Shown here piece by piece: positions 47,244 through 62,323 of a DNA stretch of 64,000 nucleotides. Under the pieces are notes generated by a model, which was not told the origin of the DNA, searched no databases, and worked only from the letters and a program-made list of their open reading frames with translations. Both the position numbers and the translations under genes were made by a program. Source of the stretch: Candidatus Poribacteria bacterium (GTDB lineage: Bacteria > Poribacteria > WGA-4E > PCPOR2b); contig OZ220744.1 of the NCBI GenBank assembly GCA_965116925.1, forward strand, positions 5,696,001-5,760,000, in the 5' to 3' direction. Position 1 is the first letter of the stretch; each line of letters starts with the position of its first letter.

Positions 47244-47426
47244 CGTGTGAGCCAATCTGTGAATCGCCGAATCAAGCTCCAGTTTTGAAGTTTTGCCCCA
47301 TTTCTGACCATTTGCTTTTTCTTGCGCTTTATATGGAGATCGGTTATCAAAATCTTCCGTTCTAAAACCCCATCATTTATGGCGTGGATCCAGAACGGCT
47401 AACCCGGTTGTCTGTCAAAAAAAGTG

Positions 47427-47455
47427 TTGAAATTGCGGGCGAAAAATGATATAGT
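47427..47455 (+). promoter_or_regulatory. Putative sigma70 promoter inside the IS left end
   Basis: TTGAAA-17 nt-TATAGT with extended TG. Confidence 0.65.
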
Positions 47456-47461
47456 TGTCTT

Positions 47462-47540
47462 GTCTTTCGTGGGGGCGTTTCAGCCCGACCGCATGGTAGG
47501 GGCCCCACATCCACTGAAACGGATATGAAAGCCAGAAAGC
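47462..47540 (+). ncRNA. Putative pseudoknotted tnpB 5' leader RNA (copy A)
   Basis: Four helices that covary with copy B at 57986-58068. Confidence 0.65.
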
Positions 47541-47550
47541 CGAGTCCCTC

Positions 47551-47796
47551 ATGAAAACCTACAAGTTCAAGATGTATAGCAATCACGGTAATGGTGAGTT
47601 GCACAAGACTATAGACGGACACGCCGAAGTGTGGAATCATTGCATTGCGCTTCAGCGTCGTTACTACGCTATCTATGGTAAACATATCAGCAAGTTTCGG
47701 TTGATAAACCATATTTTTAATAACATCTATAGGGTTGGGGCATCAACCCTCGAAGGAGAGGACGTAAGACTATCTTCGGATAGCTGTCCTTGTTGA
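47551..47796 (+). pseudogene. tnpB: Truncated tnpB (N-terminal HTH fused to the extreme C-terminus)
   Basis: MKTYKFKMY...WNHCIALQ, then directly NIYRVGAST; RuvC core absent. Confidence 0.7.
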
Positions 47797-47879
47797 TAGC
47801 GCAATTCGACTCCTATTGGCAAGGGACTCGTAAGAATCCCAAGCCTTTAGGTTTGGGAGTATGTCAAGGTTAGATCATA

Positions 47880-48536
47880 ATGAGCTCAAATACTTCGCTT
47901 ATTCTGAACTATGAAAATATCTCCCAAGCCACAATCAACCGCCTCTCTTTGTACTCCCGGCTTTTAGCGACGCTTGAACTCGACGGGGTTACGGTTGTGT
48001 CTTCAAAGGAGCTATCAGAACGCACCGATTTTACAGCGACCCAAATCCGAAGGGACTTCGCTTATTTTGGACAATTTGGGAAGCGTGGAATCGGTTATGA
48101 GGTTGCTGCGCTCAAACAAGCCGTTGACAAGATTCTCGGCGTTCATGTTCCTCGAAAAGTCGCGCTCATCGGCGTTGGTAACTTGGGAAGTGCTTTATTG
48201 GGGTATCGCGTACTGCGGGAGCATAATTTTGAGATTGTCGCGGCATTCGATAATGATTCGAGTAAATGGGATCGTGTCATCAATGACGTTGTAATCCAGA
48301 ACATCGCAGAACTTCCCGAAACTGTGCAATCCAAGCAGATTGAAATTGGCATTATTGCTGTGCCGCTCCATGCGGCGCAGAGCGCGCTCGATTGTCTCGT
48401 TGCAGCAGGGATTAAAGCGATTCTTAATTTCGCGCCAGCGCACCTGATCGTTCCGCGTCATATTAAATTGAGGAATGTGGATTTATCTATAGAGCTTGAA
48501 GGGCTTTCTTACTTTTTGCAGCATCAAGCACCATAA
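47880..48536 (+). CDS. rex: Redox-sensing transcriptional repressor
   Basis: RLSLYSR, QIRRDFAYFG..GKRGIGY, GVGNLG, ILNFAP. Confidence 0.95.
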   Translation: MSSNTSLILNYENISQATINRLSLYSRLLATLELDGVTVVSSKELSERTDFTATQIRRDFAYFGQFGKRGIGYEVAALKQAVDKILGVHVPRKVALIGVGNLGSALLGYRVLREHNFEIVAAFDNDSSKWDRVINDVVIQNIAELPETVQSKQIEIGIIAVPLHAAQSALDCLVAAGIKAILNFAPAHLIVPRHIKLRNVDLSIELEGLSYFLQHQAP

Positions 48537-48545
48537 GGAGTGTTT

Positions 48546-49523
48546 ATGAGCCACTTTCCGGTTTATCGCCCAAGACGGCTTCGTGCTAATGAGAACCTCC
48601 GGCGGCTTGTTCGAGAGACCCAACTTTCTGTCGATGATTTAATTTACCCAATGTTTGTCGTCCACGGGGTTGATATTGCATCGGAGATTCCATCAATGCC
48701 GGGGTGTTATCAATACTCAGTCGATCGACTCGTCCGGGAAGCGAAGGAGTTGGCAGCTCTTGGCATTCCGGGGACGCTCTTATTCGGGATTCCAGAATCC
48801 AAGGATCCGGTTGGCTCCGAAGCCTATGCCGACGATGGCATCATTCAGCGTGCCGTGCGAGCGATCAAGGATGCAGTCCCTGAGCTGCTTGTAATCACCG
48901 ATGTCTGTCTTTGTGAATATACGGATCATGGGCATTGCGGTGTCATCCATGAGGGGGAGGTACTGAACGACCCGACGTTGGAGTTGTTGGTCAAAGAGAG
49001 TTTGTCCCATGCCCGTGCCGGTGCAGATGTGATCGCTCCGTCCGATATGATGGACGGACGGGTTGGTGTAATCCGCGAGGCGTTGGATGACAGTGGATAC
49101 GATCAAACCCCCATCATGGCGTATTCTGCAAAATATGCGTCTGCGTTTTATGGTCCCTTTCGGGAGGCAGCAGAATCTGCCCCGCAGTTTGGGGATAGGC
49201 GTGCGTATCAGATGGACCCTCCGAATGTGGAGGAGGCGTTGCGAGAGGTCGCCTTAGACATTGAGGAAGGTGCGGATATACTTATGGTCAAGCCTGCGCT
49301 GTCCTATCTTGATGTGCTCAGTCAGGTAAAAACGCACTTTCAGGTGCCTGTTGCTGCGTATAACGTGAGCGGGGAATACTCAATGATCAAAGCCGCGGGA
49401 CAAAACGGTTGGATCGACGAAAATCGGGTCGCGCTTGAGGTACTCACGAGCATCAAGCGCGCAGGTGCGGATATAATCTTGACTTACTTTGCAAAATCGG
49501 TTGTGGAGTGGCTCGCAGAATAA
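48546..49523 (+). CDS. hemB: Porphobilinogen synthase (Zn-type)
   Basis: [31 protein letters not shown] 48546 after AAGGAG. Confidence 0.95.
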
Positions 49524-49542
49524 CTGAAAGGGAGAAAACACG

Positions 49543-50826
49543 TTGAATAACGCCAAATCTTTGGCAGCATGGCAAAAATCACAACAATTTATTCCCGGCG
49601 GCGTTAATAGCCCCGTAAGAAACTTTAATAAGGTTGGTGGCAGTCCGGTCTTTATCCAGCGTGGTAAAGGTTCAAAGGTCTATGACATTGACGGTAACAA
49701 ATATATAGATTATTTGGCATCATGGGGACCGCTAATTTTAGGACATGCCCATCCGAGCATTCTTGAAGCAATTCAAGGTGCGGCGGAGAACGGCACTAGC
49801 TTCGGGGCGGCAACGGCGTTAGAAGCTGAGCTTGCTGAACTGATTGTCAACGCCTGCCAGTCGATAGAGATTGTTCGATTGGTCAACTCCGGCACAGAAG
49901 CCACGATGAGCGCGATTCGTGTTGCACGTGGGTATACCGGACGTGATAAGGTCATCAAGATGGCGGGCTGTTATCACGGGCATGTTGACTCACTCCTCGC
50001 CGAAGCGGGCTCCGGGGTTGCAACCTTCAGCGTTCCTGAATGTATGGGCATTCCGGCAGATTTCACACGACATACCCTCGTTGTGCCGTTCAATGACGTT
50101 GATGCTGTGCGAGATGCGATTGAAGCCAACCCAGATCAGATCGCTTGTTTGATTCTTGAACCGATCGCGGGCAATATGGGTGTGATCCCACCACATGACG
50201 GTTATCTCCAAGAATTGCGCGAGATTACCGCTGAACACGGTATCCTTCTTATTTTCGATGAAGTGATCACCGGATTTCGCGTGGCGTACGGCGGGGCACA
50301 GTCCCTCTACGGAGTCATTCCCGATATGACCTGCCTTGGCAAGATCATCGGCGGAGGGATGCCGGTCGGTGCGTATGGCGGGAAAAAAGAGATTATGGAA
50401 AATGTCGCGCCCCTCGGCGGCGTTTACCAAGCAGGAACCCTATCGGGCAATCCGCTTGCGGTATCCGCTGGCATCGCAATGCTGAAAGCACTTTCCGAGC
50501 CTGATGTCTATGATCAACTTGAGGCGCGCGCTGCTGCCTTTGCAGAAGGACTTCAAGCAGCCACCAAACGCCACGGAATTGACACATGGCACAGCCGAGT
50601 TGGGTCAATGTTGATGTTCTATTTCACGGGTGAAACGGTTACTGATTACGAAGGCGTACAGACCGCAGACACAGAACGCTACGCCTCTTACTTCTGGAAT
50701 TTGCTTGAGAACGGGGTTTATGTCGCCCCATCTCAGTTTGAGACCGGCTTTGTTTCACTAGCACATTCTGAAGCAGACATAGACCAGACAATTGATGCAG
50801 CCGATGAGGTGCTATCAAGACTTTAA
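49543..50826 (+). CDS. hemL: Glutamate-1-semialdehyde aminomutase
   Basis: PGGVNSPVR, NSGTEA, GKIIGGGMPVG, YQAGTLSGNP. Confidence 0.95.
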   Translation: MNNAKSLAAWQKSQQFIPGGVNSPVRNFNKVGGSPVFIQRGKGSKVYDIDGNKYIDYLASWGPLILGHAHPSILEAIQGAAENGTSFGAATALEAELAELIVNACQSIEIVRLVNSGTEATMSAIRVARGYTGRDKVIKMAGCYHGHVDSLLAEAGSGVATFSVPECMGIPADFTRHTLVVPFNDVDAVRDAIEANPDQIACLILEPIAGNMGVIPPHDGYLQELREITAEHGILLIFDEVITGFRVAYGGAQSLYGVIPDMTCLGKIIGGGMPVGAYGGKKEIMENVAPLGGVYQAGTLSGNPLAVSAGIAMLKALSEPDVYDQLEARAAAFAEGLQAATKRHGIDTWHSRVGSMLMFYFTGETVTDYEGVQTADTERYASYFWNLLENGVYVAPSQFETGFVSLAHSEADIDQTIDAADEVLSRL

Positions 50827-50926
50827 TGTATGAAAGGGAGATAACGGAGAAACAAAAAGGAGCACAACGTGAAGGCTATAAGCGAGAGAATCAACTTTCA
50901 CGTTTCACGTTTCACGTTTCATATCC

Positions 50927-51913
50927 ATGCCAACACCAAGCCTTAACGAAATTTGCCATTTTATTACAGACGATTTGCAGGCTGTCGAAAAAAAACTTAG
51001 CGAGAAAACCACGAGTCATTACGACTTTGTTGATCTTGCCGTCCAGCATGTGGTCGAAGGGGGCGGTAAGCGGCTGCGCCCAATGCTGTTGTTGCTTTCT
51101 GCGAAATCGTGCGGCTACCAAGGTGAGGATGCCCATACGCTTGCAGCAACCGTCGAACTCATCCATGTCGCCTCGCTCGTTCACGATGATGTACTTGATG
51201 AAGCTCCGATGCGTCGGGGGCGTGAAACGTTGCACTCTAAATGGGGCAATAAAGTGGCGGTGCTCGTTGGGGATTATCTCCATGCTCGCGTACTTTCAAT
51301 GCTTGTTGGCCGACGTGCCGATGACGCTGCGATGGCCCTTCTTTCCGATGCAACACATTCGATGTGTGAAGGAGAGGTTATCCACGCCTATAAAAATGGG
51401 GATTTTGACATTTCGCAGGACGACTACCTAAAGATTATCGACCTGAAAACAGGCAAACTTATCACCGCCTCGTGTGCGATGGGAGCGGTACTCGGAACAC
51501 AGGATTCACAAATTATTCAGGCATTAACAGCATACGGAGAAGCTATCGGCGCGGCATTTCAGATTATCGACGATCTCCTTGATCTTGTGGCGGATGGAGA
51601 AACGTTGGGGAAGGAGCCATTTAACGATCTACGTGATGGTAAACTGACATTTCCGATGATTTATGCCCGTAAAGTCTGCACAACCGAAGAGAGGACAGAA
51701 CTCGAACGGCTTTTTAGTTTACAGATGGATGAGACTGGAGCAATCGAATGGATCGAGGCACTGCTTGAACGCTATCAGATTCAGACACATTGCCGTGGGG
51801 TCGCTCAAGAATACGCCGACCACGCAAAATCTGCTCTGAATGTGTTACCCAAAACGCCTGCAAGAGATGCCCTAGCTCAACTTGCGGACTACGGTGTATC
51901 TAGGGATTGGTAA
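50927..51913 (+). CDS. Polyprenyl diphosphate synthase (IspB/HepT-like)
   Basis: GGKRLRP, HDDVLD...RRG, FQIIDDLLD. Confidence 0.9.
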   Translation: MPTPSLNEICHFITDDLQAVEKKLSEKTTSHYDFVDLAVQHVVEGGGKRLRPMLLLLSAKSCGYQGEDAHTLAATVELIHVASLVHDDVLDEAPMRRGRETLHSKWGNKVAVLVGDYLHARVLSMLVGRRADDAAMALLSDATHSMCEGEVIHAYKNGDFDISQDDYLKIIDLKTGKLITASCAMGAVLGTQDSQIIQALTAYGEAIGAAFQIIDDLLDLVADGETLGKEPFNDLRDGKLTFPMIYARKVCTTEERTELERLFSLQMDETGAIEWIEALLERYQIQTHCRGVAQEYADHAKSALNVLPKTPARDALAQLADYGVSRDW

Positions 51914-52002
51914 AAAAAGAATAATGCGTAATTCGTAATGCGTAAAAAAGGGCGGCCGGACAAGAAAAGCCTACAACGACCTATTGTGTTACTTTTTATA
52001 CT

Positions 52003-53175
52003 ATGTTCTATCCAGCGTATCTGAACCTCCAAAACCGTAAGTGTCTTGTTGTGGGTGCAGGGCTTGTCGCCGAACGAAAGGTGCTCTCTCTGCTGCGCAG
52101 CGGCGGGGATGTAACGCTAATCAGTCCCGAAGCGACGCAAGCCAATGTGGATTTGGCACAGAGCAATCAGATTACATGGCATAAACGTCAGTTTCGGTCT
52201 GGTGATACGGAAGGGATGTTCCTCGTCTGTGCGGCAACCGATCTGCCGGAGATCAACACACAAGTCTTTAAAGAAGCACACGAAGTATACGGAATCAATC
52301 TTGTCAATGTGGTTGATGTGATTCCTGAATGTACCTTTGCAGCGGCGTCCGTGATTACGCACGAGGACCTGACGATTAGTATCTCCACAAGCGGCAAAAG
52401 CCCAGCGTTGTCCAGACGCATCCGAGAATATCTTGAAGCGAAATTCGGAGCGGCATCTCTCTATGATGAACCGTCTGAGCCGACTTTCAACCTGCCTCTC
52501 AAGGGGGCTGGACTTCCGTATCCGGTCTATTTTCTGTTGGAGGATCGTCCCTGTGCCGTAATCAGCGATTCGGAGGAGATGAGCGGACCGCTTGCACAAA
52601 GATTAGATCTATTGCTGCGTTGCGGTGCATCTGTTGATCGAGTTGTCCCGAACTCTGATAACTTGGAACATATATCAGATGCCTTCCTTGTGTTGGTTGA
52701 CAATTTCGGGACTGGAGATTTTGCTTTAGCGAATCATAGTCAGCATCAATTAATTGAATTCATCAATGCTCCAAGATTTAGCACATTTACCACGCCGCCG
52801 TTGGTGAGAGACGGCGATTTGATTATCAGCATTTCCGCCAATCATATTCAGGAGACTAACAAAGATGTAGTCGGAAGAGATAAAATCGAATCTGTACAAA
52901 CCCAACTCGCCCATCAGTTTGAAAATAACGGTTATGGGGAGTTTATCGATTTTCTCGGGTTGCTACGCCCTACGGTGATGGAATCTATCCCAACTCAGAA
53001 GGGACGCCAGCGATACTTCGATCGCCTCATCGATCAGGTTCCTGGAAGTGAAGGGCAGAAGTGCTGCTTAGGTTTTGAAGACGCTAACTGTGCGGTCAAA
53101 TGCACTTTCAACATGATTCGCAGTGGGCAAACAGACGTTGCTGGTCAATATGCCCTCCAACGAATCTGCGAATAA
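52003..53175 (+). CDS. Precorrin-2 dehydrogenase/ferrochelatase (SirC/CysG-N) with internal duplication
   Basis: YPAYLNL, VVGAGLVAERK, ISISTSGKSP; second degenerate copy follows. Confidence 0.75.
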   Translation: MFYPAYLNLQNRKCLVVGAGLVAERKVLSLLRSGGDVTLISPEATQANVDLAQSNQITWHKRQFRSGDTEGMFLVCAATDLPEINTQVFKEAHEVYGINLVNVVDVIPECTFAAASVITHEDLTISISTSGKSPALSRRIREYLEAKFGAASLYDEPSEPTFNLPLKGAGLPYPVYFLLEDRPCAVISDSEEMSGPLAQRLDLLLRCGASVDRVVPNSDNLEHISDAFLVLVDNFGTGDFALANHSQHQLIEFINAPRFSTFTTPPLVRDGDLIISISANHIQETNKDVVGRDKIESVQTQLAHQFENNGYGEFIDFLGLLRPTVMESIPTQKGRQRYFDRLIDQVPGSEGQKCCLGFEDANCAVKCTFNMIRSGQTDVAGQYALQRICE

Positions 53176-53181
53176 GTTTAA

Positions 53182-53272
53182 GGCTCGTATAAAAAGAAAG
53201 TGCAAAGCATGGAGAGAAACCGAGTTTTGCCGAAAAAACTCGGTTTCTTTGCAGTAAACCTTAACATGAACG
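53182..53272. mobile_element. MITE family A copy
   Basis: GGCTCGTAT...CATGAACG; 8-bp direct repeat AAGTTTAA. Confidence 0.8.
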
Positions 53273-53309
53273 AAGTTTAATAAATACGCTTCTTACGTTT
53301 TATATCGCG

Positions 53310-54125
53310 ATGAATTCACTGTTTTTTCACACGCTTTTGCTGGTCTATTTGGCGGCGAGCATATTGCATATTCTTTTCCTTACAACAGGGAATCAAAAGG
53401 TCACGAAATTCGCCTACGGGCTAACGATAGGAGGATTTGTGCTGCACTCAGCCTTTATTCTCTTGCGTTGGCAGCACGCGGGACACCTGATGGCACATTG
53501 GTATGATTCAACCTCCTTCCTAGCGTGGGCGATTATCTTGATTTATCTGTGTATTGCACATCTGACTCGCCTCCGCACGATCGGGGTTTTTGTGGTTCCT
53601 GCTGCTTTTATAGCCACTTTAGTCGCTTATACACTACAAACTCAGGAAAATACTGCGATTCCTACTTATCTCAAAAATTACTGGCTTATCGCCCATTCTT
53701 CCGTTATTTTTCTGGCTTACGCCGCGTTCGTTGCCGCGTTTGGGTTTGGACTGATGTACTTGATTGAAGAGAAGAAAATTCGTGAGAAACAGCATACGCT
53801 CATCTACAATCTTCTGCCCGCGCTTGGACGATCCGATGAGCTCGGTCACAAATGTATCTTCGTTGGCGTAATTTTGATGACGATGGGCATCCTTATTGGG
53901 GTGCTTTGGACACAGTACGTTACAGAAGTCAAATGGATATGGGTTGATGCAAAAGTTATCTTCACAATCGCCACATGGCTTATCTATGTGTTACAACTCA
54001 GCATCCGTCAAATTCTCGGTTGGCGCGGACGTAAAACTGCGTATTCCGCAATCATTGGTCTTGCTGCTGTGTTATTTACCTATGCAGGCGTTAATCTTTT
54101 TTTACCGAGTATACACGCATTCTAA
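53310..54125 (+). CDS. CcsA/HemX-family membrane protein
   Basis: 8 TM, W.WVDAK (WWD-like), GWRGRK, terminal H; directly upstream of hemA. Confidence 0.8.
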   Translation: MNSLFFHTLLLVYLAASILHILFLTTGNQKVTKFAYGLTIGGFVLHSAFILLRWQHAGHLMAHWYDSTSFLAWAIILIYLCIAHLTRLRTIGVFVVPAAFIATLVAYTLQTQENTAIPTYLKNYWLIAHSSVIFLAYAAFVAAFGFGLMYLIEEKKIREKQHTLIYNLLPALGRSDELGHKCIFVGVILMTMGILIGVLWTQYVTEVKWIWVDAKVIFTIATWLIYVLQLSIRQILGWRGRKTAYSAIIGLAAVLFTYAGVNLFLPSIHAF

Positions 54126-54135
54126 CATTTAACAG

Positions 54136-55461
54136 ATGAACCAAATTGTTACTGTTGGCACAAGCCATCATATTGCACCACTCGATTTTCGGGAACGGTT
54201 GTCGTTTTCTGAAAGCCAGCTTACAGAAGCTTTCCAACTTTTAGGGGAACATCCCGATATTGATGAGACAGCGATTCTCTCGACCTGCAATCGTGTTGAA
54301 GTCTATGCCGTGACCCGCAGTAAAGATGGCTGTGCTGTGCTTTCCGATTTTCTATCAAATTATCATCGAATCAAACCGCAACAGCTGGGCAAGTTTACAT
54401 ATAGTCATCAAGATCTTGATGCCGTTCGCCATCTTTTTAATGTAACCGCAAGTCTCGATTCTATGGTTGTCGGTGAACCACAGATTCTCGGTCAGGTGAA
54501 AGAGGCGTATGCTCAATCACTCGCTGTTGGTGCGACCGGTGATATTCTGAATCGTCTATTTACCAAGGCACTGCGTGTCGGCAAGCGCGTTCGCACCGAG
54601 ACCAATATCGCCGCCGGTGCGGTATCCATCAGTTACGCAGCGGTTGAACTTGCTAAGAAGATCTTTCAAAGTTTGGAAGATAAAACGGTCGCCATCATCG
54701 GTGCCGGCGAGATGAGTGAATTAACGGCGCAACACCTTGTGAAGAACAATGTATCCAAAGTCATCGTGGCGAACCGAACCTATCAGCGTGCGGTTGACAT
54801 CGCCAAAAAATTTAATGGGATCCCCCTAGCATACGACGCTGATCTGAGTTTCCTTGTCGAAGCGGATATTGTGATCAGCTCGACCGATGCACCCCATTAT
54901 CTAATTGACCGGCATTCACTCGCAGAGATTATGAGACAGCGGAAGCACCGTTATATGTTCCTGATTGACATCGCTGTGCCTCGTGATATTGACCCCGAAG
55001 TGAGCAAAGTAGACAACGCCTTCCTGTATAATATTGATGATCTTGAAGCGGTGGTCGCCTCCAACCTCAAGGACCGGGGACAAGAGGCAGAGATTGCAGC
55101 ACAGATTGTCAAAGAGGAAGTCGCAAAATTTCAGTTACAGTTGCAAGCCTTTGAAGTCAATCCAACAATCAAAGCACTCCATCAGCAATTTCAAGGGGTT
55201 GTTTCAAAAGAGTTGGAGGTGTGCTTTGGCAAAGCAAAGCTGAGCTCCGAACAACAGCAGACAGTTGAAGCAATGACGCAAGCGATTATAAAAAAATTGT
55301 TGCATCAACCGACGACGAATTTGCGCCAAGTTGCTTTGAATTCTGATCTTATCGGCGCGGTCGATGATATTAACGACGAACATGTGCAGTATGTCCGGGC
55401 CCTGCAGGAACTGTTTGATTTGGAACAAGTAGAGGATATTAGCAAAGAAAATAAAGATTGA
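54136..55461 (+). CDS. hemA: Glutamyl-tRNA reductase
   Basis: STCNRVE, SLDSMVVGEPQILGQVK, GAGEM, DIAVPRD. Confidence 0.95.
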   Translation: MNQIVTVGTSHHIAPLDFRERLSFSESQLTEAFQLLGEHPDIDETAILSTCNRVEVYAVTRSKDGCAVLSDFLSNYHRIKPQQLGKFTYSHQDLDAVRHLFNVTASLDSMVVGEPQILGQVKEAYAQSLAVGATGDILNRLFTKALRVGKRVRTETNIAAGAVSISYAAVELAKKIFQSLEDKTVAIIGAGEMSELTAQHLVKNNVSKVIVANRTYQRAVDIAKKFNGIPLAYDADLSFLVEADIVISSTDAPHYLIDRHSLAEIMRQRKHRYMFLIDIAVPRDIDPEVSKVDNAFLYNIDDLEAVVASNLKDRGQEAEIAAQIVKEEVAKFQLQLQAFEVNPTIKALHQQFQGVVSKELEVCFGKAKLSSEQQQTVEAMTQAIIKKLLHQPTTNLRQVALNSDLIGAVDDINDEHVQYVRALQELFDLEQVEDISKENKD

Positions 55462-55498
55462 AGTCGATGTGAGACAAGGTCGGATAAAGGGATTCACA

Positions 55499-55639
55499 AT
55501 GGAAACATTTGGAATTATCGGAATGGCACTTGGAACGACTGGCTTTCTCTTTGGCATGTTAGCTTATGTTTTGACTGCTCGCCTCCAAGGACGGATAGAA
55601 CGCTTGGAATCTGAGCTTGAAAAATTGAAAGCTGAATAG
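55499..55639 (+). CDS. Small single-TM coiled-coil protein (CcmD-like), not in the ORF track
   Basis: 46 aa METFGIIGMALGTTGFLFGMLAYVLTARLQGRIERLESELEKLKAE; AAAGGGA RBS. Confidence 0.6.
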   Translation: METFGIIGMALGTTGFLFGMLAYVLTARLQGRIERLESELEKLKAE

Positions 55640-55666
55640 CGTTGCTTGAGTCTTTTTAACGGTTTT

Positions 55667-55771
55667 TATAGTAGATCTTAGAATTAATGAGACACGCCAA
55701 ACCGGTGCGGTTGAAAACCGCACCTACCGGGTCTGGGGGAAAGTGTCCATTTATTTTTTGCATTCACTATA
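55667..55771. mobile_element. MITE family B copy
   Basis: TATAGTAGATCTTAGAATTAAT...CATTCACTATA. Confidence 0.8.
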
Positions 55772-55845
55772 TATGAGTCGGTTGGGCGCAACTGAACTGT
55801 CGGGAGATTCGTTAGCATCCACCCCGCAAGCCGAGAGGCTTTGAC

Positions 55846-56787
55846 ATGAAAAGCACTATTACCATCGGTACACGCGGCAGCCAACTTGCCCTCTGGCAGG
55901 CAGAATATGTGAGGAAGCGTCTGAATGATCGCTTTCCCGACCGCTCGATTGAACTCAAGGTTATCAAGACAACGGGGGACAGAATTACAGACCGCTCTCT
56001 CGTCGGACTCGGTAAGGGGGTCTTTACAAAGGAGATCGAAATCGCGCTTTTGGACGGCACAATAGATCTCGCTGTCCACAGCATGAAAGACCTGCCAACG
56101 GATCTGCCCGATGGGCTTTGTATCGCCGCTATCCCTGTCCGTGAAGACCCTCGCGATGTGCTAGTCACGGAATCTGGACTGCTCCTCGATCAACTCCCGA
56201 AAGGAGCGAAAATTGGAACGACAAGCCCACGCCGTAAATCTCAGCTGTTACACTTACGTCCCGATTTGCAGGTTGTGGATGTTCGCGGAAATCTTGACAC
56301 GCGCCTTCGCAAGCTGCATGAGACAGAGCTTGATGGTGTTATCCTTGCCGCGGCGGGAATTAAACGGTTGATTGGTGAGGAAATTGTTACAGAATATTTT
56401 GAGGCAGATCAGATGGTCCCTGCTGCCGGGCAAGGGGCATTGGGGGTAGAAGCGCGCGCTGATGACCTTGAAATCAAGGCATTGTTAGACGCAATTAACG
56501 ATAGTTGTAGCGAAACTGAGGTGTTTGCAGAGCGGGTTGTGTTGGGTGAATTGGGTGGTGGGTGTCAAGTTCCGATTGGTGTGAACGCACTGTTGGAGGA
56601 CGATAGGCTTCATCTGATTGCTACGGTTTGCAGCCCTGACGGAAAACATCGCCTTCTTGAGAGGCTATCGAGTAATTCAGCGTGTGCCCAAGAGTTGGGG
56701 GTCAACCTTGCAACGAAGTTGATTCAGAATGGAGCGCACAAACTTGAGAGTCAGTTACCCCGCCCTGAAGTGACGGTGCTTGTTTGA
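55846..56787 (+). CDS. hemC: Hydroxymethylbilane synthase (C-terminus supplied by the IS)
   Basis: IGTRGSQLA, AVHSMKD, RGNLDTR, GGGCQVPIG. Confidence 0.95.
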   Translation: MKSTITIGTRGSQLALWQAEYVRKRLNDRFPDRSIELKVIKTTGDRITDRSLVGLGKGVFTKEIEIALLDGTIDLAVHSMKDLPTDLPDGLCIAAIPVREDPRDVLVTESGLLLDQLPKGAKIGTTSPRRKSQLLHLRPDLQVVDVRGNLDTRLRKLHETELDGVILAAAGIKRLIGEEIVTEYFEADQMVPAAGQGALGVEARADDLEIKALLDAINDSCSETEVFAERVVLGELGGGCQVPIGVNALLEDDRLHLIATVCSPDGKHRLLERLSSNSACAQELGVNLATKLIQNGAHKLESQLPRPEVTVLV

Positions 56788-57977
56788 AGCATCCGTCCAA
56801 CGGGTCTTACAAAGTTTCGCGCTTCTGTCCCCTGACGGGGGATTTCGGGGTCGTTTGCAACCGACGCACCTCCACGCAAGGCTACAGCAGCCTTTTTGAT
56901 ATTTATCGCGGCGTTATGGTCTCTATTGAGGACCAACCCACAATGGGGGCAATCATGGAGACGATCCGACAACTGTTTAGGCACAATCTCACGACAACCG
57001 GAGCATTGCTGACTGGTATGGTGAGGTTTCACTTTGGTGAACTGCTTGCCGGCACTTGCAGCCTTGCTTTGCAGTTTCAATCGAAAGCTACCCCATCCCG
57101 CGTCAGATATACTCTTGGCGAGGTAGTGATTCTTCAACATATTGGTAATGGTCAAGTTCTCTACAGCGACCTCATCACATCGTTCAAGGATACGATGGGC
57201 TGCCTTAAACTGGAAATCCTTGCGCTGATTCGCTATCCGTTCATGGCAACGGGCGACAATCTCACGTTGTTTTGCCCGGCGGCGGCTCCCCTTTTTGCGG
57301 CGAGACAATACGCGTTGATGTTTGCCAAGGCGTTTTTCAGACTGACGATAATGGCGGGGGTTGGGGATATGTTCGCCATCCGAATCTACGGCAAACGAGT
57401 TAAGTCCCACATCTACGCCGATCGTTGTGTGGACAGGGACTTCTATAGGATCTGGCCCTTCGACGCAGATAGTTACATACCAACCGCTGGCTCGCTTGAT
57501 GACCGTCAGATTCTTGATGTTGCCATCGGCTAAGGGGCGGTGATAACGGATCTTGAGGTGTCCTATTTTCGGAACAACGACTTTGGCAAACTTACGATGT
57601 ACACTCCGGACCAGCTGCTTGGACAGGTGGCTAAAGGTCATTGACCGGTATCGCCCTTCGCCTTTGAAGCGTGGGAAGCCCGGTGCCTCTCCGTTCTTGG
57701 CACGGCGGAAGAATGCTTTGTACGCTTTATCCAAACGGCGCATCGCATCTTGGAGAACATCCGCGTGAAGTCCTGCATAAGCCTTGGAGGCTGTTTTCAA
57801 GTCAGGTAAGGCGTTGGCTTGGGTCGTCCATTTGACAGAATCATTATTTTTCTTATAAGCGTCTATCCGCCACGCTAACGCTTGATTGTAGAGATTTCGC
57901 AACAAGGCAAGCCAAAGCAAAAAAGTATGTCGCTGTTTCGTCGTAGGATAGGCGCGATATTCATAAGTCTTTTTCAT
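56751..57977 (-). CDS. tnpB: RNA-guided endonuclease TnpB
   Basis: MKKTYEYRAYP, IGVDVG (D), AVENL (E), CSGC/CPHC zinc finger, NRDHNAA (D). Confidence 0.92.
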   Translation of the reverse strand: MKKTYEYRAYPTTKQRHTFLLWLALLRNLYNQALAWRIDAYKKNNDSVKWTTQANALPDLKTASKAYAGLHADVLQDAMRRLDKAYKAFFRRAKNGEAPGFPRFKGEGRYRSMTFSHLSKQLVRSVHRKFAKVVVPKIGHLKIRYHRPLADGNIKNLTVIKRASGWYVTICVEGPDPIEVPVHTTIGVDVGLNSFAVDSDGEHIPNPRHYRQSEKRLGKHQRVLSRRKKGSRRRAKQREIVARCHERIANQRKDFQFKAAHRILERCDEVAVENLTITNMLKNHYLAKSISDAGWGSFRLKLQSKAASAGKQFTKVKPHHTSQQCSGCREIVPKQLSDRLHDCPHCGLVLNRDHNAAINIKKAAVALRGGASVANDPEIPRQGTEARNFVRPVGRMLQTSTVTSGRGN

Positions 57978-57985
57978 ATGAGTTA

Positions 57986-58068
57986 GCTTTCTGGCTTTCA
58001 TTCCTTTTCTACGAGGTGTAGGGGACATCCCGAAGGGTTCGGGATGGTAGAAATCCCCTACGAAAGCC
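57986..58068 (-). ncRNA. Putative pseudoknotted tnpB 5' leader RNA (copy B)
   Basis: GGCTTTC/GAAAGCC, GTAGGGGA/TCCCCTAC, TTTCTAC/GTAGAAA, CATCCCGAA/TTCGGGATG. Confidence 0.7.
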
Positions 58069-58074
58069 ATAAGA

Positions 58075-58103
58075 ACTGTACCATATTTCACACAACTTTT
58101 CAA
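58075..58103 (-). promoter_or_regulatory. Putative sigma70 promoter of tnpB
   Basis: TTGAAA-17 nt-TACAGT with extended TG; same geometry as the 47427 promoter. Confidence 0.65.
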
Positions 58104-58304
58104 CGAAAAAGGAGCGCAGTTTCCTCCCCGCTCTAAAGAATGGGGGCTCCACTGCGAAGAGTTGATGAAATGTGAAACGTGATGGAAAGAGATGAAAGAG
58201 GGAAACTGAAAATAGGATAATGGGACTTGGGCTTCTCGTTTTCTCACTTTCTGCTTTTTCGCTCTTCGTGCATTACGTTTCACGCACTACGTAAAGCGTG
58301 AATC

Positions 58305-59843
58305 ATGGCTGCCATAAATGGTAAAGTCTATCTTGTTGGAGCGGGACCGGGCGATCCGAAACTGATAACGCTCAAAGGGATTGAATGTCTCCAACGCGCA
58401 GATGTAGTAATCTATGACCTGCTTATCAACGTCAAATTACTTGAACACTGTCCCGTACATACCGAAAAAATCTATGGCGGAAAGATGATAGGCGAGCAGG
58501 AAGAACGCCAAGCCGAAATTGACGATCTGATGATTTGGCACGCAAAGGCAGGCAAAACGGTTGTCCGACTCAAAGGCGGTGATCCGTTTATATTTGGGAG
58601 AGGTGGAGAAGAGGCACTGACACTTGTGGAGGCGGGAATTGATTTTGAGGTCGTGCCCGGTATTACTTCAGCGATTGCCGCCCCGGCGTATGCAGGTATC
58701 CCTTTGACGCATCGGAGTTATTCCTCCTCTGTCGCATTTGTCACAGGGCATTCGGCGGCGTTGAAAGCGGATTCGACAATCCGTTGGGAGCAGCTCGCTA
58801 CAGGTGTGGATACGCTGGTTATTCTTATGGGGGTAGGGCATTTACGCGAGATTGCAGCGCGTTTGGTTCAACATGGTCGTTCACCTGAGACACCGATCTC
58901 TCTCGTCCATTGGGGAACAACACCGCAGCAAAAGACACTTGAAGGAACCCTCGCAGACATCGCTCAAAAGGCAGAGGCTGTCAGTTTTCGGAATCCGGCG
59001 GCAATTGTCGTCGGTGACGTCAATGCTTTGCGCGAACAATTGCGCTGGTTTGATCAAAAACCGCTTTTCGGTCGTCGGATTATCGTCACCCGCGCTCGGG
59101 CGCAAGCGAGCGACTTTGCGGAATACCTTGAATCCTATGGTGCCGAGGTTATCCAGTTTCCGACGATTGAAACCGAGCCGATTCCCGACAATGCTACGTT
59201 GGACGGGGCAATTGATCAACTTGCAATCTACAACTGGGTCATTTTTACCAGCGTCAATGCTGTGGAATATTTCTATCGTCACCTGCGAGAAAACGGCAAA
59301 GACACTCGATCACTTGGAAATGCACGTATCTGTGCAATTGGACAAAAAACCGTAGCGGCATTAGATCAGATCGGAATTTGTGCAGATTATGTTCCGTCGC
59401 AATATCGCGGTGCAATCCTTGCAGCAGAGTTAGAGGGTGTGGAAGGGCAAAAGATTCTACTGCCACGCGCCACGATCGCTGCGGATGACTTACCCAACGG
59501 CTTACGAGATAGAGGCGCGATTGTCGATGCTATTCCGATTTATGAGACCGTCAAAACCGGTGCAGAGGGATGCGAGACACTCGAAGCGGACCTACATAAT
59601 GGACGAATCGACACGGTAACATTTACAAGTTCATCAACTGTTACCAATTTTCTTGAGATGTTCGGTTCATACCCGTCCGCTGCCTTGCTCGATCAGGTTC
59701 ATATTGCGGTGATCGGACCGTCAACTGAAGCAACCGCTAAAGCGAATGGATTGACGGTAGATATAGTTGCAAAGCAAGCATCTGTAGAATCACTTGCGGC
59801 AGAGATTGTTGAATTTTATAGAGAAAAGGAGAAAGAAAAATGA
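58305..59843 (+). CDS. Fused uroporphyrinogen-III methyltransferase/synthase (CobA-HemD)
   Basis: [22 protein letters not shown], then VTRA, FTSVNAV, FTSSSTV. Confidence 0.92.
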
Positions 59844-60286
59844 ATCGAAAAAGGACTAAAATCATCATTGCGAGTCTTATCTTAGCAGCTGCGATGGCAT
59901 TTCTCGTCGTTGCGGGGGTGAAGAACACAAGCATGAGACACTTCACGCCTGACGCGCTCGTTGCACACGCGCAAGAGGTTCACAATAAGGGCATCCAGGT
60001 GGATGGGTTGATTGCGGAAGGTACCACCCAATGGGATCCAATAAAGTTTCAACTCACCTTTGCGGTACGAGATCGAGACGGGCAAGCAAGCGTCAAGGTC
60101 CTCTATGCAAATAGACTCAGACCCGACAATTTCAAAGATGGCGGAGATGTCTTTGTTCAAGGGAAGTATAACGCAGCCGAAAACCTTATCGTTGCCTCCA
60201 AACTCCAAACGAAGTGTGCGTCGAAGTATGAAGCAGCCGAAGGCATGACGGCACAGACTGTTGGAACCGATACGGCCGATTATTGA
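59840..60286 (+). CDS. ccmE: Heme chaperone CcmE (CxxxY variant)
   Basis: N-terminal TM, PDNFKDG, KCASKY. Confidence 0.85.
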   Translation: MNRKRTKIIIASLILAAAMAFLVVAGVKNTSMRHFTPDALVAHAQEVHNKGIQVDGLIAEGTTQWDPIKFQLTFAVRDRDGQASVKVLYANRLRPDNFKDGGDVFVQGKYNAAENLIVASKLQTKCASKYEAAEGMTAQTVGTDTADY

Positions 60287-60310
60287 GCCTCAAAAGGAAA
60301 GACACGCGTT

Positions 60311-62323
60311 ATGGCAGAATTGGGACAGGCAGCAATATGGCTTTCAGTGTTTTCCTGTCTGTGGGCATTGACGATGCTCTGGATGGGATTGCGTCATAAC
60401 AACTACAACGCAGTCATCAGCGGACGAAATGGGGTTGTCGGGACCTTTGCTTTAATAACGCTTGCAACAGGCGCGTTAATCTACGGTTTTGTAACAAACG
60501 ACTTTTCGATGAAGTATGTCGTCGAAGTCTCCAGCTACGATCAACCCCTGCTGTACAAAGTCACTGCGTTGTGGGGACGGATGTCCGGTTCGCTCCTGTT
60601 TTGGCTTTGGCTCGTGACGCTTTTTGGTGCATTGGTCGTATGGACAAACCGACGTGCGACCGATTACTTGGCTGACTATGCCCTTATCCCTATCTCGATA
60701 GTAAAACTGTTTTTTATCATCCTTGTGACGGGATTGGTCGAAGGTGTTTACAATCCGCTGGAACGTTTGCCAAATGGTGTGGTTGCTCGTGACGGTGCTG
60801 GCATGAATCCGTTGCTGCAAACACCGAGCATGGCTTTTCATCCTCCATCGCTTTATGTCGGCTTCGTCAGCCTGACCGTGCCGTTTGCTTTTGCTATCGG
60901 TGCGCTCGCTGCTGGCAAGATAGGCAGCGAGTGGATTAACAGGTCGCGGCGATGGATGATGGCATCTTGGTTAGTGCTGACGCTTGGCATCACGCTCGGT
61001 GGAAATTGGGCATATCGTGAGCTCGGATGGGGTGGCTATTGGGCGTGGGATCCCGTCGAAAATGCCTCTTTCATGCCGTGGCTGCTCGGCACCGCCTACC
61101 TTCACTCGGTGATGATCCAAGAGAAGCGAAATATGCTCAAGCTTTGGAATATCGTCTTGATTACGCTTGCGTTTGAGTTTACGCTTTTAGGAACTTTCAT
61201 CACCCGTAGCGGGATAATCACCTCCGTGCACGCATTTGCACAATCCGACATCGGGGGATATTTCCTAGGGTTTATCTTCCTTTCCACATTTAGCGTTATC
61301 GGGCTTTTGGCTTACCGCTGGAACGATCTCAAAAGCCCCAACCGCCTTGAATCCCTCCTTTCCCGCGAAAGTTCGTTTCTCCTAAACAACTGGATGCTTG
61401 TAGGCTTGACGCTAATTATCCTTTGGGGAACGTTGTGGCCAGTTATCACAGAACATGTCACCGGAGAAAAAGCCGCGGTCCCAGAGGCGTTTTTCAATCA
61501 GGTGGTCATTATTCCCGGGCTGCTGCTCCTGTTACTCACAGGTGTCGGTCCAATTATTTCATGGAAAAAGTTGACACCGAGCAATTTCAAACGGATGTTT
61601 GCCAAACCGATTGTTTTTGGAGTAGTCGGTGGCATACTCGCGTGGATATATCTCGCTCTGAGAGGACACGCTGGGGCAATCTATTCCGCGCTTTGCGTCT
61701 TCGCTAGTGCTTTTGTCCTTGTAGCCATCTGCGATGAATTCTATCGTGGATCAAAATTACGAGCTAGACGGAGTGAAACCTCATTCTTTGATGGACTCAT
61801 TCAACTCATTCAACGCAACAAACGTCGATACGGCGGCTATATCGTCCATATCGGCATCGTGATTTTATATATTGGGATTCTGGGGTCTAAGGGCTATTAT
61901 CTCTTGGAATCGAAGGGGCTACAACTTAATGAATCAATAGAGGTCAATGACTACACGCTCACGGTACAAGATGCGTTTCAGGAGGAACACCCTAATTTTT
62001 CGCTCGGTGGCGTTGTATTCGCTGTTGAGAAAGGTGGGAAACCGATAGGGACGATGCGTCCGGCGCGTGGGTTTTATCATAAAGCAGGTCAAGGCGACCA
62101 AGATACCATCGAGTCAGCCATACGCCATATGGGATTAAACGACCTCTATATCGCATTAGGTCCCCTTCCCCAAAACGTACCCGCCCATGTGCAATCCGGT
62201 GGAATTGTCAATGTTCAAGTTTACCATAACCCGCTTATCAATGTTGTCTGGCTTGGTGTTGCCATCATGATGATTGGTGGATTGGTCGCACTCTGTGAAA
62301 AGCACGTCAAAGGTAACATGTAA
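60311..62323 (+). CDS. ccmF: Cytochrome c heme lyase CcmF
   Basis: GMNPLLQ, FHPP, WGGYWAWDPVENAS, SVHAF. Confidence 0.95.
   Translation: MAELGQAAIWLSVFSCLWALTMLWMGLRHNNYNAVISGRNGVVGTFALITLATGALIYGFVTNDFSMKYVVEVSSYDQPLLYKVTALWGRMSGSLLFWLWLVTLFGALVVWTNRRATDYLADYALIPISIVKLFFIILVTGLVEGVYNPLERLPNGVVARDGAGMNPLLQTPSMAFHPPSLYVGFVSLTVPFAFAIGALAAGKIGSEWINRSRRWMMASWLVLTLGITLGGNWAYRELGWGGYWAWDPVENASFMPWLLGTAYLHSVMIQEKRNMLKLWNIVLITLAFEFTLLGTFITRSGIITSVHAFAQSDIGGYFLGFIFLSTFSVIGLLAYRWNDLKSPNRLESLLSRESSFLLNNWMLVGLTLIILWGTLWPVITEHVTGEKAAVPEAFFNQVVIIPGLLLLLLTGVGPIISWKKLTPSNFKRMFAKPIVFGVVGGILAWIYLALRGHAGAIYSALCVFASAFVLVAICDEFYRGSKLRARRSETSFFDGLIQLIQRNKRRYGGYIVHIGIVILYIGILGSKGYYLLESKGLQLNESIEVNDYTLTVQDAFQEEHPNFSLGGVVFAVEKGGKPIGTMRPARGFYHKAGQGDQDTIESAIRHMGLNDLYIALGPLPQNVPAHVQSGGIVNVQVYHNPLINVVWLGVAIMMIGGLVALCEKHVKGNM

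Follow-up and report, generated by a model that had tools for sequence, protein, structure and literature searches.

We describe a structured leader RNA that precedes tnpB, the gene for the TnpB nuclease, in IS605-family insertion sequence (IS) elements of a Candidatus Poribacteria genome. The stretch analysed, called the window below, covers 64,000 nucleotides (nt) of contig OZ220744.1 and holds two such elements, A and B. Comparison with relatives indicates that the leader is a real RNA family, uncatalogued and lineage-restricted, whose fold is well supported and whose first helix, unusually, can form in two registers. The leader RNA is most likely an undescribed on/off control of nuclease synthesis in these sponge-symbiont bacteria.

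Element B, the intact one, lies on the reverse strand, and comparison of its six copies in the genome defines its ends. Its parts, in window coordinates, are as follows.

56750..58164 (-), element B, a non-autonomous IS605-family (tnpB-only) element
58169-58165 (-), target motif TTCAT, directly before element B
58107..58160 (-), left-end hairpin region, distinct from the leader and also preceding leaderless sister elements
58103-58075 (-), sigma70-type promoter, TTGAAA-17 nt-TACAGT, with the -35 at 58103-58098 and a TG-extended -10 at 58080-58075
58068 (-), predicted +1, from the -10 spacing and a pyrimidine-purine step
58062..58068 (-), 5' strand X, GGCUUUC, the P1 strand that would switch partners
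58018..58061 (-), long arm, in which P2 pairs 58061-58054 with 58025-58018
58053-58047 (-), 7-nt bulge of the long arm, the 5' strand of P3
58046-58026 (-), hairpin P4 of the long arm
58003..58016 (-), hairpin P5, whose loop (58013-58006) holds the P3 partner GUAGAAA
57993..57999 (-), copy 1, GAAAGCC, partner of X in the proposed ON register
57985..57992 (-), copy 2, with AGAAAG, partner of X in the proposed OFF register
56751..57977 (-), intact tnpB, 408 amino acids, with HTH_OrfB_IS605, OrfB_IS605 and Cas12f1-like TNB domains

RNA-library contigs have loose ends at the borders of B (56749/56750 and 58170), and its promoter was also returned by a further search. The 3' end of tnpB overlaps the right end of the element. 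Close sisters of B have neither promoter nor leader.

A preliminary description of the two leaders, made from the window alone, had listed both promoters, a 6-nt spacer behind each, helices P1 to P4 and a second AGAAAGC 8 and 10 nt before the ATG, and all of these are indeed in the sequence, each in its place. The helix P3, described as a pseudoknot, had to be redrawn. Its pairing stands (covariation 0.76, versus 0.21 in shuffled and at most 0.15 in slid controls) but its topology does not: the supposed 5-nt P2'-P3' linker is the 5' strand of an overlooked hairpin, P5, and the P3 partner sits in the loop of P5. This position makes the RNA a three-way junction (P1, P2/P4 and P5) with P3 as a kiss between bulge and loop, which is the fold that we conclude from the comparison.

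Among 42 distinct family members, 93% of the cells of P1, P2, P4 and P5 are paired, with 128 two-sided changes, in counts that, like all our covariation and pairing counts, ignore kinship among leaders. None of 500 shuffles scored as high and slid controls reached 40-50%, so that the early impression of pairing kept while sequence differs was borne out. We then parsed 223 matches into 167 distinct leaders, leaving out low scores, duplicates and 4 misparsed or deleted loci. There are 99 distinct P3 helices, and 68 of them form at least 6 Watson-Crick pairs with their own partner; when partners are swapped, 2.6% do so. P3 varies most of all the helices (its mean identity is 0.37 in 59 leaders of the class of A and B, where P4 has 0.54 and P2 has 0.83); it remains complementary despite this lowest sequence identity. 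Hairpin P5 reaches at least 3 base pairs (bp) in 111 of the 116 leaders whose P3 has at least 6 bp, a count made without a shuffle control, with compensated examples present. In P2, G.U pairs outnumber A.C pairs by 39 to 7 among 1327 cells, which assigns the structure to the sense strand. Among unpaired bases only the C at the second position of the P4 loop is near-invariant (98%), and junction positions are conserved to about 70% at most. By the rule that transcription starts 7 nt after the -10 at a pyrimidine-purine step, X begins at the predicted +1 in the sigma70 copies, and 108 of 125 leaders have such a step at +6/+7 counted from the -10.

Some further candidate features were rejected. 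Pairing of the 3' strand of P5 with the CC before the start codon is no better for cognate (45%) than for swapped partners (53%); P3, as a possible barcode for the element's own omegaRNA or open reading frame (ORF), matches these at background level; and many members do not have the ATG overlapping copy 1 from which a short peptide might start.

The distinctive feature of the leader is that X has two possible partners. A second complementary copy is present in 151 of the 162 leaders that have the first, across 15 classes of X; in the control, non-cognate X strands find a second site in 319 of 2896 trials. In a distant host family X is quite different, and both 3' copies are altered to match it. 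The alignment supports the registers equally (95.9% of cells paired with copy 1, 96.3% with copy 2). They are offset by 7-8 nt in 126 of 151 leaders, and in some classes 13-23 nt of unrelated sequence lie between the copies, of which there are one, two or three (in 12, 132 and 18 leaders, respectively). The two copies are identical in 41 of 108 pairs and differ in 67, which argues against mere recent duplication; 52 of 96 differences leave both copies paired, a count inflated by transition bias, and there are 5 shared mismatches. Computed energies, in which P3 is omitted, place the registers within 2 kcal/mol of each other in 49 of 74 leaders, with a median of +0.45.

The alternative pairing with the second AGAAAGC, noticed at first in two leaders, is thus conserved across the family, and it falls where translation begins. 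Of 96 coding leaders, 91 have copy 2 at -18..+5 relative to the start, 84 of them at -18..-4 and 7 over the start codon, and in these last the core Shine-Dalgarno (SD) word stands between the copies. A strand of the 5' untranslated region (UTR) is therefore complementary to the gene's own initiation site in these 91 leaders and, as in many riboswitches, the alternative pairing covers a ribosome-binding site (RBS), on comparative and computed evidence. In the class of A and B, AGAAAG pairs with the 16S ribosomal RNA tail at an aligned spacing of 3-6 in 57 of 62 cases (the host-gene mode is 4-6), the tail being read from the genome sequence, identical in five relatives and predicted in its mature 3' end. 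Copy 2 of element B shows the same complementarity at a host-like spacing, and among host genes AGAAAG peaks at -11..-9 (56 of 2169, versus 0-3 per position farther upstream). The core SD word itself occurs in 11 of 101 leader-bearing tnpB genes, against a background of 10.6% and a host-gene value of 65%. We do not claim that X is a general mimic of the 16S tail, a notion that fits three classes and is weak in all others.

The fold, the two registers and the overlap of copy 2 with the initiation site are established by comparison, and together they suggest a two-register switch or damper on TnpB translation, a reading to which we give an even chance. Promoter and leader would form one cassette, its RNA beginning at the predicted +1 and folding as a three-way junction braced by the 6-7 bp bulge-loop kiss. 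X, the first 6-8 nt, could then pair in either register, 7-8 nt apart or, in some classes, 13-23 nt. Paired with copy 1, it would leave the SD region and start codon free, and TnpB would be translated (ON); paired with copy 2, it would cover both (OFF). Copy 1 would thus be a decoy and copy 2 the initiation site. The kissed junction may favour copy 1 through a shorter joining strand, and switching between registers in the cell might respond to a host factor, candidates being the availability of ribosomes, a small molecule, or a host protein that binds RNA and recognises the conserved P4 loop. Because the leader follows host lineage, as described below, such a factor is a likelier trigger than TnpB. 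Alternatively, the leader might act as a constant damper, keeping down the amount of a DNA-cutting enzyme whose promoter is strong.

What lies behind the leader varies widely. In the source genome it is found at 25 of 30 tnpB loci, four full-length tnpB loci are without it, and 14 of the 39 copies listed have no tnpB piece behind them. Each of three deep TnpB clades has both leader types, sorted by host family, in a quick tree of 86 proteins whose long branches meet. This sorting implies that the leader moves between IS families within a lineage, and we conclude, from the comparison of this tree with the leaders, that it does not co-descend with its nuclease. Three ORF-less elements of the source genome, possibly guide-only elements, have the leader fused to an omegaRNA akin to the one found in another TnpB clade. 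A second, mobile ORF-less IS605-type element of about 650 nt consists of left end, promoter, leader, about 430 nt of conserved non-coding sequence and right end; its variants are 70-85% identical, with three near-identical copies in one genome. The element has no match in Rfam, and its 430-nt region is a candidate new long non-coding RNA. Finally, modules of palindromic upstream sites, a promoter that we take from its consensus to be sigma54-type, and the leader lie 150-400 nt before unrelated host genes, many of which have predicted N-terminal signal-like segments. Many of these copies have about 55 nt and another hairpin before X, and the tail of the leader appears to resemble a decayed tnpB start.

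G000:C1:4280371+, 2585505- and 5589028+, ORF-less leader-omegaRNA elements of the source genome
L133, L138, L143 (G081), L140, L145, L148 and L162, loci of the 650-nt ORF-less family
G000:C1:322142+, 338602+, 3117540- and 3232600-, with L121-L127 and L164-L180, sigma54-type leader modules

Several of these facts weigh against a switch on translation. Fold and second copy are kept in the three ORF-less omegaRNA elements and in the 650-nt family; copy 2 is also kept in 19 of 24 sigma54-type copies, with no start codon behind it, and in 32 of 33 further copies that have no long ORF, many of which are truncated tnpB. This retention, which supports a role independent of translation, is the main evidence against a purely translational one, and it speaks against the earlier idea that the leader serves TnpB translation alone. 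For most leaders of the other large host family, copy 2 matches the 16S tail weakly, with values close to shuffled ones, and the end of copy 1 is often at -10..-13, so that pairing with copy 1 would itself crowd the ribosome. Element B is predicted to be 99% in the copy-1 register (a gap of 3.0 kcal/mol, in energies that omit P3). The omission of P3 and the predicted 3' end of the 16S tail count on the same side, as do the RNA-library contigs, which span element B, its promoter and its flanks alike (4 of 4 runs), hence carry no information on transcription or start site, and yielded neither start site nor strand. The leader may instead be a translation-independent 5'-terminal module, a serious but somewhat unlikely alternative, in which a blunt P1 at +1 and the kissed junction block 5'-end-dependent decay or aid RNA polymerase read-through to a downstream omegaRNA or other RNA, with copy 2 keeping the 5' end paired if copy 1 is displaced. 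Such a module would fit X at the predicted +1 of sigma70 copies, leaders that stand immediately before omegaRNA in ORF-less elements and have altered helices that still pair, retention before the 430-nt non-coding region and in sigma54-type modules well upstream of host genes, and the correlation with host lineage. It leaves unexplained, however, why, in coding copies, copy 2 coincides with the SD or the start codon; many sigma54-type copies have their extra 55 nt and hairpin before X, and four full-length tnpB loci do without the leader. Switch and stability are compatible: 5'-end protection may be the general function, with RBS control added in coding copies.

The other explanations are less probable. 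The leader could be a strand-exchange riboswitch for a metabolite or ion, one that transposons and host promoters have captured and in which a ligand at the kissed junction fixes the P1 register. The switching strand in the first helix is typical of that architecture (PMC10907184; here and below, sources are cited for the accessible part of their text), the core is conserved with variable 3' platforms, and the register energies are near-equal; but junction nucleotides vary, the P4-loop C is the only near-invariant position, and the downstream genes are tnpB or unrelated host genes in which no pathway theme was seen, making this improbable. We think it very improbable that the copy-1 fold alone matters and that copy 2 serves as a spacer, which slipped-strand duplication beside the hairpin base creates and renews. 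Offsets of mostly 7-8 nt, the varying copy number, one element with the same mismatch in both copies and another with X itself five times over would all fit slippage, yet copies 13-23 nt apart, with unrelated sequence between them, still match X, and most copy pairs differ in ways that often keep both paired. Least probable of all is that the leader is an operator through which bound TnpB regulates itself, a self-cleaving ribozyme or a signal that TnpA reads in single-stranded DNA, the first two of which the preliminary description had proposed. That 25 of 30 tnpB loci carry the leader, that TnpB processes its own mRNA (PMC10278001), that the genome has Y1 transposase domains (5 matches) and that the sense-strand pairing bias fits RNA or top-strand DNA can be cited in favour. 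Autoregulation by TnpB is unlikely, since the leader follows host family rather than TnpB clade, with the same classes on three deep clades and in copies without tnpB, and P3 has no match above background in the element's own omegaRNA or ORF. For a small ribozyme, as for the metabolite aptamer also suggested earlier, a single near-invariant unpaired position is little to build on; there is no conserved catalytic core and no Rfam ribozyme match (topologies were compared from general knowledge). The IS200/IS605 left-end DNA hairpin is a separate structure, common to leaderless sisters, and the distance from leader to promoter is fixed.

A wider form of the switch hypothesis is also conceivable, although we regard it with some doubt. 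Promoter and leader might be a lineage-wide exchangeable cassette through which a host signal gates synthesis of an RNA-guided nuclease across many unrelated transposon families, the kissed junction being the sensor and the slide between direct repeats the output; guide-only elements, the long non-coding RNA and sigma54-type host genes would be later reuses.

To map the spread of the family, we searched the source genome with a profile, which found 27 strong copies and several weak ones, and then built covariance models. Model R1, made from 42 sequences, gave 37 matches there at E<=1 and found the leader in 57 of 151 Poribacteria genomes. The broader R2 gave 38 in the source genome and, scoring the best 27 candidates per genome, at least 1210 matches in at least 111 of the 151 sampled Poribacteria genomes, all within three host families; these are lower bounds, because 2 reverse-strand rows of R2 are spurious and its alignment of P1 is wrong for the distant family. 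The covarying leader first seen in two elements is thus a family. R2 matched 0, 0, 0 and 1 of 151 genomes in each of four other phyla (604 in total; 27 candidates per genome, no positive control), and the single match is weak, lacks P2 by eye and is put down to chance. A pattern search gave 78 matches, 65 in Poribacteria; the other 13 are chance matches with no profile match, and 10 of those genomes are without a model match. A metagenome scan with the sigma54-class pattern only, the A/B class not being scanned there, returned 4 matches, all by chance. Viral contigs gave 0 pattern matches, 80 viral TnpB loci no genuine match and plasmids no leader match. In Rfam 15 nothing in the window matched at the gathering threshold, with unrelated sub-threshold matches only at E<=10, and scans of 20, 18 and 6 family loci placed no family over a leader, HEARO, RAGATH-18 and the known riboswitches and ribozymes included, in line with the novelty first supposed.

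Several known systems invite comparison. In Salmonella, a stem-loop in the 5' UTR of IS200 tnpA hides the SD and represses 20-fold (PMC5435999). As in our leader, an IS200/IS605-family element with its own promoter uses mRNA structure to hide the SD; there, however, a single static hairpin acts together with the antisense RNA art200 and Hfq (PMC5435999), whereas the Poribacteria leader is a kissed three-way junction with two registers, stands before tnpB and is common to IS families and host genes. Strand-exchange translational riboswitches and the ZTP and cobalamin kissing architectures share with it the switching strand in the first helix, an RBS-sequestering alternative and a long-range loop pairing of 5-7 bp (PMC10907184). 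The leader differs in having no known ligand, almost no invariant unpaired bases and no Rfam match; and since the alternative strand directly repeats the P1 partner, the remaining fold need not change.

Like omegaRNA, reRNA and sotRNA, HgcC and RAGATH-18, the leader is a structured RNA from tnpB elements (PMC10055086, PMC11061315, PMC4615843). RNAs of the omegaRNA type come from the right end and carry the guide (PMC10055086), whereas the leader lies between the left end and the start codon. Leader-bearing elements have an RNA region of their own at the right end, which gives weak HgcC or RAGATH-18 matches, and the view that the 5' RNA is distinct from the omegaRNA, which overlaps the 3' part of tnpB and takes its guide from flanking DNA, is upheld. 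The IS605-orfB-I RNA (RF03065; PMC11701678) is also a structured motif named for IS605 orfB genes; unlike the leader, it is a 214-position model, and it had no match in the source genome at E<=1 (control genomes were empty too) or in whole-Rfam scans of leaders. AmaTnpB, too, is restrained in cis by its own mRNA, but through a region inside the ORF that acts on the omegaRNA, in constructs with a synthetic 5' UTR (PMC10278001). TnpB RNAs in print are thus right-end (PMC10055086) or ORF-internal (PMC10278001). Our literature search, which most subscription papers lay outside, found no description of a structured tnpB 5' leader: the words 'leader' and 'UTR' do not occur in the accessible text of a 2026 TnpB review (PMC13639567), a term search of the accessible part of 10.64898/2026.09.15.751765 did not find the leader RNA, and the main text of PMC5737381, as far as accessible, has no such RNA and not the motif name 'Poribacteria-1', its supplement of 224 motifs, which may bear on novelty, lying outside the search.

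The leader bears on the control of TnpB amounts in natural elements. With more than 1200 matches, the family offers a small (about 90 nt), richly covarying and directly testable control element, whose output would be an unusual register slide and which seems to be exchanged among the transposon families of a host lineage. A trigger, should there be one, would connect homing activity with the state of the host; failing that, the leader would still be a compact RNA fold that is new, and it might be a tunable part with which to restrain nuclease expression.

Element A proved to be an internally deleted relic, its TnpB being of another clade than that of B.

47348..47867 (+), element A, an internally deleted IS605-family element
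47427..47455 (+), promoter, TTGAAA-17 nt-TATAGT, with the +1 predicted at 47462
47462..47541 (+), leader, with X at 47462-47468 and the bulge at 47477-47483
47469-47476 with 47502-47508 (+), P2; 47484-47501, P4; 47509-47524, P5
47527-47533 (+), copy 1; 47535-47541, copy 2
47551..47867 (+), tnpB remnant, about 54 N-terminal codons fused to the 3' end, including the right-end omegaRNA region

The preliminary description of two tnpB elements thus holds for B and fails for A, whose tnpB is not intact. The leader of B folds as described, with a z score of -5.5 against shuffles; that of A, taken alone, folds no better than shuffles (z -0.02) and has a U.C mismatch in P1. It scores 78.9 bits with R1, whose training set includes it. 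A weak HgcC match lies in the right end of A (47756-47879).

Some minor observations concern individual leaders. In one locus (L015:1785-1920) X is repeated five times in tandem, and in another (L135:1501-1612 and ~1887) two related leaders lie about 300 nt apart on opposite strands, neither of them before tnpB. An intact tnpB frame behind a leader has ATC in the start-codon position (L044 / L163). Leaders of the B family are otherwise near-identical, and the 6 nt before the start codon vary (window 57978-57984), with 4 variants in 6 copies. Elements A and B lie in or beside a gene cluster with a Rex-like regulator and tetrapyrrole and cytochrome c genes (window 47880-62323), and we found nothing linking the leader to the tetrapyrrole/cytochrome c pathway of this cluster. 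The hemC frame (window 55846-56787) ends within the right end of B, so that the transposon supplies its last residues and stop codon.
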